Shown here in pieces: positions 9,001 through 12,000 of a DNA stretch of 48,597 nt. Position numbers: made by a program. Location: the IMG/VR virus record IMGVR_UViG_2879742664_000003. One strand, written 5' to 3'. Each line of letters opens with the position of its first letter. Position 1 is the stretch's first letter. This DNA is from a virus. Lineage: Duplodnaviria > Heunggongvirae > Uroviricota > Caudoviricetes.

Positions 9001-12000
9001 GTGAGAGGATTATGGACCGCATGACCATGAACGGTGGTCGATGGGTGACGTTTAACTGGGATAGCTGGCGTCCAAATGTCAGCAATATGAGGGTTGTGAA
9101 GTAATTTTGTCCGGAGGAAATTTTAATGGAAACCGTATCTGACGCACTGAAAGCACTGAAAAAAGCCTCTTCACATGTGGTGGCAGCTCGCCTTGGAATC
9201 AGTCGTGAAGAGGCTGTCAACGAGCTGTGGGAACTCAAAAGAAAAGGCGTCGTTGATAAAACTGGTCACACCTGGTTTCTGGCTGGCGAAGGTGAATCCC
9301 GGGTAACCGAAGAGCGGCCAGTAAAATCTGAAGCACAGGATATGCTGACCGGGGAGGTCGAACAAAAAGTTACCGCAGACATGATGATTGAGTTTATCGG
9401 TCAGGATGGGGCTAAAACGTGTGAGGAACTGGCGGGTAAGTTCGGTGTCAGTACTCGCAAGGTTGCTTCCACGCTGGCGGTGGTAACCGCAACGGGGCGG
9501 CTGGCACGCGTTAATCAGAACGGTAAATTTCGTTACTGCATGCCGGGCGATAATTTACCAGCAGAGCCGAAAGCCGCGCTGGTAACGGAAAGTGATGGTA
9601 AGGCCTTTCCTCAGCCAGCAGGTGCTGCGTTACCAGTCCGGGAAGCCGCAACACAGGAAGAAATTAAAACAGAAACTGTGGCGGACATTGTGCAGCCGTT
9701 GCCATCGTTTACCGAAACGCAAGCAGATGAGCTGATTTTTCCGTCCCTTCGCAGGGCAAACCTGGCGCTGCGCAGGGCGAAAAGTGATGTTCAGAAGTGG
9801 GAGCGAGTCTGCGCCGCGCTGCGGGAGCTGAACAAGCACCGGGATATTGTTCGACAGATTACTGATTCTTCCCGCCGTGTTGTATCGGAAAAGTGATTGC
9901 CGGAGGCGCTTATGGCAAAAGTATTTACACAAGAAGAGCGGGAAAAAATTAAAGGGCAGGTTGTTGAACTTGTACGTCTGAGCGGTCGCGAGACGTTGCG
10001 GCAACTGGAAGCCAAGACAGGTGCGACAAGATATCTGATGAGTGTTCTCGCCAGAGAGCTGGTTGCCAGTGGCGATGTATACAACTCTGGTTACGGGTTA
10101 TTCCCGTCTGAACAGGCGCGTAAGGACTGGCAAAATGCTCGCAAAAAACTCTCAAGGGCAAAGGTGAAGAAACCTGCAGTGGTTGATCCGGACCTTATCT
10201 GGTCGTTACCAGACGGCGAAATACGCCGCTACGACAGGCGCCTGAATATAATCTGTCGCGAGTGCCGGAAGAGCGAAGCTATGCAGCGTGTACTGGCATT
10301 TTATCAAGGAAATGTTAGGTATTTTAGACGTTACTAGATTAAAGAGCATTAGTTCAGATGTGAATTGACATTTTCATGGCGCAGGGTAGAGCCAGCGTGG
10401 TTGTCCGCTTTGCGTCAAAACCAGATATTACCAGATTTAGACATATATTCCCGATAGCCCTGCTCTGATGCTACACTCTGTGCTATTTTCATGACCCCAA
10501 TAAAAATATTTATGACTATTGCTGATTTCAAACGGCCTAAATTGGAGCTCCCAAACGGGGCAAACAAACTACTACTGCACTCTTGCTGTGCTCCATGTTC
10601 CGGTGAAGTGATGGAGGCGCTTCAGGCCTCGGGAATCGACTACACCATCTTTTTCTACAACCCGAACATTCATCCTCAGAAAGAGTATTTAATTCGTAAG
10701 GATGAAAATATTCGCTTTGCTGAACAACACGGCGTGCCGTTTATCGATGCTGATTACGACACCGACAACTGGTTTGAACGTGCCAAAGGAATGGAATGGG
10801 AGCCTGAGAGGGGGATCCGTTGTACCATGTGTTTTGACATGCGTTTTGAGCGGACAGCGTTGTACGCTGCTGAAAATGGTTTCAGTGTGATCAGCAGTTC
10901 ACTGGGCATTTCACGCTGGAAAAATATGCAGCAGGTTAACGAGTGTGGGCGGCGAGCTGTTGCGCATTATCCGGGTATGGTGTACTGGGATTATAACTGG
11001 CGCAAGCAGGGCGGCTCGTCCCGTATGATTGAAATCAGCAAGCGCGAAAAATTCTATCAGCAGGAATATTGTGGCTGTGTGTATTCTCTGCGCGATACCA
11101 ATCTACACCGCAAATCTCAGGGACGCCCTCTTATCAAAATTGGCCAACTCCACTACGGAAAAGAAGAGAAGGAGTGATTTTATGGATCACCTTTCTGATT
11201 GATTTCATATTGGCGAGGTGACGTGAGTTAAGTAGAATGGCTGCGGGTGCTTGAGGCTATCTGTCTCAGGCATGAACACTGAAAGGCAGATAGAGAAAAG
11301 CCCCAGTTAACATTTCGCGTCCTGCAAGACGCTTAACATTAATCTGAGGCCCAATCTATGTCTCACAAATGTAGGTTAGCCTCTTACGTGCCGAAAGGCA
11401 AGGGGAAGCAGGCTATGAAGCAGCAAAAGGCGATGTTAATCGCCCTGATCGTCATCTGTTTAACCGTCATAGTGACGGCACTGGTAACGAGGAAAGACCT
11501 CTGCGAGGTACGAATCCGAACCGGCCAGACGGAGGTCGCTGTCTTCACAGCTTACGAACCTGAGGAGTAAGAGACCTGGCGGGGGAGAAATCCCTCGCCA
11601 CCTCTGATGTGTCAGGCATCCTCAACGCACCCGCACTTAACCCGGTTCGGCGGGTTTTGTTTTTTTCTGGCATTCTGGTTTACAATTCGCACGTCAGCCT
11701 GAACACCTGACACCTGCTGCGCCAGCAGAGAAAACAGATGGCGCACAAAACCAAATTTCACAATTCTGATACCGACCTTGCCATCCGGCATGGGCGGCGT
11801 TCACACGCATTTAAAACCGACTGGTACCAACACCCACCATGTACTGAAGAACAGGCCGAATGGCTAATTCATAACTACCGCAGACGCGGATACGAGATTA
11901 AGAAAGCCCTCAGCCTCGATTATCGTCACTGGATAATCTCCGTCAGGCTTCCTTACTCTGAACGCCCACCGCGTCCGTCCCGCACATTCCAGCAACGCAT

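Follow-up and report, generated by a model that had tools for sequence, protein, structure and literature searches.

A queH cassette in a lambda-like prophage of Escherichia coli encodes a predicted epoxyqueuosine reductase beside the chromosomal QueG

Gene Content of the Prophage

The stretch of DNA analyzed here, referred to as the window, comprises 48,597 nucleotides (IMG/VR record IMGVR_UViG_2879742664_000003) and represents a complete lambda-like prophage adjoining ompW, the second half of which holds a lambda-type structural module. The first part carries, in this order, the genes for an integrase, an excisionase and an exonuclease, dicB/DicF, a repressor pair, the genes for YdaT, an O-like protein, an ATPase, a DUF1627 protein and a DUF977 protein, and queH. 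Downstream of queH the order continues with sok/hokD, DUF968, rusA, the Q antiterminator, a DNA methylase, three tRNA genes and the lysis and morphogenesis genes. The queH coding sequence (10512-11177, + strand) specifies 221 amino acids plus a stop codon and is identical to RefSeq WP_000150294.1, and a 1.1-kb region at the locus is 100% identical in the PGAP-annotated E. coli loci. The gene is situated on the early-right strand, downstream of the replication genes and ahead of the Q antiterminator.

Directly 3' of queH lies a sok/mok/hokD type I toxin-antitoxin module (11245-11420 and 11358-11570, with hokD at 11415-11570), and a terminator-like hairpin (11639-11656) follows this module. In the early-left region, the DicF antisense sRNA (4594-4645, - strand; Rfam, 76.7 bits) is found beside dicB. 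Two copies of the STnc100 sRNA family (16266-16456 and 16734-16943) are located between the Q antiterminator and tRNA genes on one side and a gene for a nanS-p-like SASA esterase (17166-19019) on the other. Stx phages carry stx at this slot; in the window it contains no stx ORF. The region separating the lysis genes from the terminase holds a convergent, slightly overlapping gene pair (21489-22109, + strand; 22051-23118, - strand) encoding a protein of 206 aa (PADLOC 'cll', 4e-31; RefSeq 'sce7726 family') and one of 355 aa (Pfam Beta_protein PF14350, 8e-56; PADLOC PD-Lambda-2_C/beta; RefSeq 'beta family'), and by these matches the pair is a candidate for an anti-phage system carried by the prophage. 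Finally, an Rfam IS009 match (46338-46536, + strand, 227 bits) falls within the tail-fibre assembly gene region, and a class I SAM methyltransferase gene (46634-47299) on the opposite strand is found at the end of the prophage.

The queH Coding Sequence

Direct reading of the + strand gives an ORF of 228 aa at 10491-11177, the translation of which includes a 15-residue stretch (letters not shown). The first-pass annotation had equated this ORF with the gene. The ORF is real, but its start probably is not at 10491. In the most divergent allele examined (L008) the first ATG is replaced by ATT and an in-frame TAA follows, while the sequence is conserved from the second ATG onward, and RefSeq/PGAP also place the start at the second ATG (10512). 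Since L008 breaks the upstream seven codons and PGAP uses the second ATG, the true start is likely to be ATG 10512, and the in-frame 5' extension of the longest ORF (10491-10511, + strand) is probably untranslated. Inspection of the sequence gave no clearly recognizable Shine-Dalgarno sequence ahead of either ATG.

The composition of queH (GC content of 48%, with 50-54% in the neighbouring genes) presented nothing distinctive. The same was the case for NAU/NAC codon usage in the late genes, and neither measure can separate an effect of epoxyqueuosine (oQ) from one of queuosine (Q).

Family Identity of the Product

An HMM search assigned the product to Pfam PF02677 (QueH) with 221.5 bits and E = 1.1e-65 over profile positions 1-174 of 175; given a cut-off of 23.5 bits, this match is far beyond chance. 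NCBIfam returned no match for the queH product, although PGAP names the protein QueH. Among solved structures, the only significant sequence matches were T. maritima QueH entries (PDB 7lc5, E = 8e-22, residues 27-203). An AlphaFold model of the prophage protein, computed from a 30-sequence alignment, had a pLDDT of 72 and a pTM of 0.74, a moderate confidence that can be attributed to the shallow alignment. When this model was compared to the PDB with Foldseek, the top five matches were all T. maritima QueH (target TM 0.80-0.82, E of 3e-10 to 5e-9), with the PP-loop proteins TtuA/LarE ranking several orders of magnitude behind. Both the full-length profile match and the predicted fold bear out the original proposal of a DUF208/QueH-like protein at this locus.

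When 1.84 billion cluster representatives were searched exhaustively with HMMER, 4775 relatives of the prophage QueH were retrieved. Among the best 150 of these 4775, each of the six cysteines of T. maritima QueH (C9, C10, C87, C90, C169, and C171) is at least 96% conserved, and all six are kept by the prophage protein as C25, C26, C104, C107, C187, and C189 (221-aa numbering). Li et al. (2021) reportedly assigned the six cysteines to a [4Fe-4S] cluster and an adjacent iron site. An 11-residue motif encoded at 10569-10601 (+ strand) holds Cys25, Cys26, and Cys29, which correspond to positions C9, C10, and D13 of the T. maritima protein. In 150 family representatives these three columns were occupied by Cys in 117/118, 118/118, and 114/118 cases, respectively. 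At the third of them Asp is rare (3/118), so that Cys29 of the prophage protein represents the family majority. PDB entry 9DCO is the D13N mutant of T. maritima QueH, and the choice of this mutation suggests that the position matters for function. The motif and the additional conserved cysteines, which had been the grounds for suspecting a QueH in the first place, thus agree with the family pattern.

Compared to the solved QueH of T. maritima (PDB 7LC5, 7LC7, and 9DEU; DUF208, PF02677, COG1636), the prophage protein shares the full-length domain, the six cysteines, the fold and a similar size. It differs in having Cys at the Asp13 position and a basic C-terminal tail of approximately 25 residues, a feature retained throughout the enterobacterial clade; unlike the usual queH, moreover, the gene sits in a lambdoid prophage and not in a chromosomal housekeeping locus. 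Judged from its sequence and the structural model, the product of 10512-11177 is an intact, full-length member of the QueH family and a predicted epoxyqueuosine reductase.

In the PHROGs collection the sole match was phrog_3217, labelled 'unknown function', whose 188-position profile covers residues 41-228 of the long ORF. This profile begins at an internal Met, past the HSCCAPCS (CCAPC) motif. It appears from this alignment that phage gene calls for the phrog_3217 family are N-terminally truncated, which may explain the 'unknown function' label.

Organization and Origin of the Cassette

In five other loci, which carry diverged alleles, queH likewise comes after the DUF977 gene where the replication module of a Rac/Qin-type prophage ends. 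At four of these loci a small annotated gene separates the DUF977 gene from queH. The intervening gene is a methyltransferase remnant in L009, L010 and Escherichia phage HannyBb; in L008 it is a hypothetical gene on the opposite strand. The downstream side varies as well, the neighbour being hok/sok, a DUF1971 gene, or a hypothetical gene with a KwaB-like gene behind it. The homology common to all alleles extends from approximately 50 nt before the ATG to approximately 8 nt past the stop codon, and given these sharp limits queH behaves as a compact single-gene cassette. In the window its downstream limit is marked by the sok antisense-RNA family region of the hok/sok module (11245-11420, + strand; Rfam RF01794, 120.5 bits). 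In being a compact single gene with sharp boundaries and varying neighbours, queH resembles the 'moron' or lysogenic-conversion cassettes of lambdoid phages, but in contrast to these it showed no promoter/terminator pair of its own in a consensus scan.

In E. coli strain 7/2 (locus L011, 5875-7514), a hypothetical gene and a gene for a 'Kiwa KwaB-like domain' protein follow queH in place of hok/sok, and this site may accordingly serve as a hotspot for accessory or defence genes.

The closest relatives outside E. coli, with 80-86% identity, are the QueH proteins of Erwinia, Gibbsiella, Providencia, Proteus, Photorhabdus, Ewingella, and related genera. In Providencia the chromosomal queH adjoins tmcA and lies near purC, while in an Erwinia-like genome it is found between purL and a glrK-glrR-glnB-hmp-glyA block. 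The surroundings are also non-phage in Photorhabdus and for a relative of 90% identity recovered from a sequencing-run assembly. Because the relatives inspected in this way occupy ordinary chromosomal neighbourhoods, the prophage queH looks like a captured enterobacterial housekeeping gene.

Distribution and Existing Annotation

The identity of the gene is already public, since RefSeq names WP_000150294.1 'epoxyqueuosine reductase QueH', and the protein is a typical family member, not a new one. In our dataset of 5426 complete E. coli genomes, queH was found in 995 (approximately 18%), nearly always as a single copy. At least 80% of the gene was covered in 985 of the 995 carriers. By identity, 707 genomes fall at 99% or higher, 181 at 95-99%, and 107 at 90-95%. 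The matches listed were all annotated as QueH, none of them with a pseudogene label. Isolates of O104:H4 and O157:H7 E. coli are among the carriers.

Among 50,697 phage records, the only isolated phage with a close copy was Escherichia phage HannyBb, with 96.8% amino-acid identity and annotated as 'hypothetical'; the other matches came from short metagenomic fragments or from large records whose 'phage' label is doubtful. In IMG/VR, 189 viral contigs carry a QueH relative, and the best 80 of these 189 are all 100% matches. A survey of deazaguanine genes in viruses published in 2019 reported that homologs of QueA, QueG and QueH were absent from the viruses analyzed (PMC6884629), and no paper dedicated to a prophage or phage QueH in E. 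coli was found in the literature searched.

Expression Signals

An upstream block (10463-10511, + strand) travels with queH and is conserved in all six aligned alleles (6/6); it is a candidate for the gene's own promoter and leader. It is retained even in L008, where the sequence farther upstream is unrelated. Within the block an extended -10-like element, TGcTACACT (10469-10477), is conserved, while the consensus promoter scan gave no canonical -35/-10 pair in 10463-10511. The same scan, which performed no better than on shuffled sequence, detected neither a promoter nor a terminator belonging to queH itself. Rfam did not recognize a riboswitch or other RNA element upstream of the gene, its only nearby match being sok on the downstream side, and the upstream regions of the chromosomal queH genes of Providencia and Photorhabdus did not align to the prophage block. 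A direct repeat, ACCAGAT-ATT-ACCAGAT (10420-10436), is present in the intergenic sequence upstream of queH and is partly conserved in other alleles.

Transcription of queH by read-through from the early promoter is expected after induction. As no promoter of its own was found, queH may be expressed only upon induction, from the otherwise repressed early-right operon, and the idea of lysogenic conversion would be weakened in that case.

Relation to QueG and Proposed Role

The queG gene was found in 5426 of 5426 complete E. coli genomes, including that of strain FORC_069, which carries an intact queG together with a queH identical to that of the window. The expectation that E. coli normally uses QueG is supported by this distribution, which includes a lysogen with the same queH, and it follows from the universal presence of queG that queH is never the sole oQ reductase in E. 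coli but a second, redundant one. In a study by Zallot et al. from 2017, an E. coli queG mutant reportedly regained Q when supplied with duf208 genes of several bacteria, and cobalamin is said to have been absent from recombinant QueH.

QueG (YjeS), which depends on cobalamin and a [4Fe-4S] cluster, performs the same reaction on the same tRNAs as QueH, as has been established for the two families (PMC5372724). However, the enzymes are non-homologous, the QueG step requires cobalamin (PMC4646009), and queG belongs to the core (5426/5426) whereas queH is accessory (995/5426). QueH has been described as an alternative to the cobamide-dependent enzyme (PMC6461909; PMC5372724). According to a passage in PMC6850298 that cites Frey et al. 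(1988), bacteria in glucose-salts medium without B12 carry oQ34 and not Q34. Considering the B12 requirement of QueG, the appearance of oQ in the absence of B12 and the existence of QueH as an alternative, the simplest reading is that queH provides a B12-independent bypass.

We are thus fairly confident in proposing that an intact QueH has been captured as a prophage cassette and that it most likely serves the B12-independent completion of queuosine on host tRNAs. The gene would have been acquired from Enterobacterales as a single-gene cassette, which begins approximately 50 nt ahead of the ATG and ends shortly behind the stop codon, and placed at the end of a Rac/Qin-type replication module on the strand of the early-right genes. 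Its product would carry out an iron-sulfur-based, cobalamin-independent reduction of oQ34 to Q34 on tRNA-Asp, -Asn, -His, and -Tyr, duplicating the chromosomal B12-dependent QueG. The cell, or the induced phage, could then complete queuosine when B12 is unavailable, a step for which E. coli relies on supplied B12. The analysis shows the family membership, the intact ligand residues, the QueH-like fold, the prophage location, the prevalence, the purifying selection and the co-occurrence with queG, and from these we infer the catalytic activity of the prophage copy, its B12 independence (from characterized family members), the timing of its expression and any fitness benefit. Weighing against a clear benefit of a second oQ reductase, the physiological distinction between oQ and Q is little understood, and one study reports that deletion of queG left the growth of an E. 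coli ΔmetE strain unaltered with cobalamin or pseudocobalamin (PMC11841063).

It is possible, though on balance doubtful, that queH is also expressed in lysogens, perhaps from TGcTACACT, that queuosine completion would consequently be B12-independent in approximately one fifth of E. coli strains, and that the prophage would thereby confer a translational or fitness trait where B12 is limiting, as in the gut.

Alternative Explanations

A first alternative is that queH is a redundant passenger, gained by illegitimate recombination, hitch-hiking with successful prophages and useless beside QueG. The universal presence of queG in E. coli, the growth-neutral queG deletion (PMC11841063) and the failure of the consensus scan to detect a promoter for queH are all compatible with it. 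However, in pairwise comparisons of the window allele to four diverged E. coli alleles and the HannyBb allele, dN/dS was 0.04-0.09 with dS of up to 0.45, pointing to strong purifying selection, which speaks against a decaying passenger. It also fits poorly with the coverage of the gene in nearly all carriers (985/995) and the lack of pseudogene labels among the listed matches, with the preservation of all ligand cysteines, and with the retention of the cassette in prophages that have differing flanks. We therefore regard a useless passenger as unlikely.

Another possibility would be an enzyme of the same fold acting on another substrate, such as an epoxide other than oQ, or a derivative of 7-deazaguanine present in phage DNA. 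Phages do employ deazaguanine chemistry on DNA (PMC6884629), and the modification clusters in question (DpdA with FolE/QueD/QueE/QueC) belong to the same metabolic pathway family as queH. Nevertheless, queH is the only queuosine or deazaguanine gene annotated in near-identical prophages that span the two halves of the window; genes of these clusters, of the DpdA/Tgt-like type or for preQ0 synthesis are all missing from their annotation. The protein shares 80-86% identity with the housekeeping QueH of related bacteria and shows no signs of having diverged, and QueA, QueG and QueH were missing from the viruses in the deazaguanine survey (PMC6884629). A different substrate thus appears very improbable, and reduction of oQ34 on host tRNA remains the preferred reading.

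The tRNA genes of the prophage deserve separate mention, as the first-pass annotation had linked queH to them. The cluster comprises tRNA-Ile2 (CAU), tRNA-Arg (UCG) and tRNA-Arg (UCU) at 15941-16190 (+ strand), as identified by ARAGORN, PGAP and Rfam tRNA matches, the CAU tRNA being called Met by ARAGORN and Ile by PGAP. It does lie downstream of queH in the same prophage, and QueH might accordingly be imagined to mature the phage-encoded tRNAs as part of one functional unit. Yet queuosine is made only on tRNAs with GUN anticodons, that is those for Asp, Asn, His, and Tyr (PMC9508795), and since CAU, UCG and UCU are not of this type the prophage tRNAs are not QueH substrates. Furthermore, the cluster is 4.8 kb away, with approximately eight genes in between, and belongs to a different module, while other queH prophages have Thr/Gly tRNAs or no tRNA genes within the stretch examined. 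The functional link was consequently rejected on the basis of both the anticodons and the absence of co-inheritance; this explanation is effectively refuted, and queH and the tRNA cluster are independent modules.

Finally, a defence or counter-defence factor in a variable accessory slot of the prophage is scarcely credible: the slot is indeed variable, a KwaB-like (Kiwa) gene lies one gene downstream of queH in one strain, and QueC-like proteins occur in defence systems (PMC13639016), but no PADLOC family (0) matches QueH, so that this role is without support from PADLOC, and in sequence the protein resembles any ordinary housekeeping QueH.

Implications

Queuosine biology in E. coli is known from work on K-12, which possesses only the B12-dependent QueG. 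Should queH be expressed in lysogens and provide the proposed bypass, the rule derived from K-12, that without B12 oQ is formed instead of Q, would fail for strains carrying queH. Expression of the gene would mean that many natural and pathogenic strains, O104:H4 and O157:H7 isolates among them, differ from K-12 in the response of their tRNA modification to B12 supply. With regard to phages, the prophage gene would exemplify the carriage by a phage of a late gene of the queuosine pathway, a class that the 2019 survey did not find among the viruses analyzed (PMC6884629).
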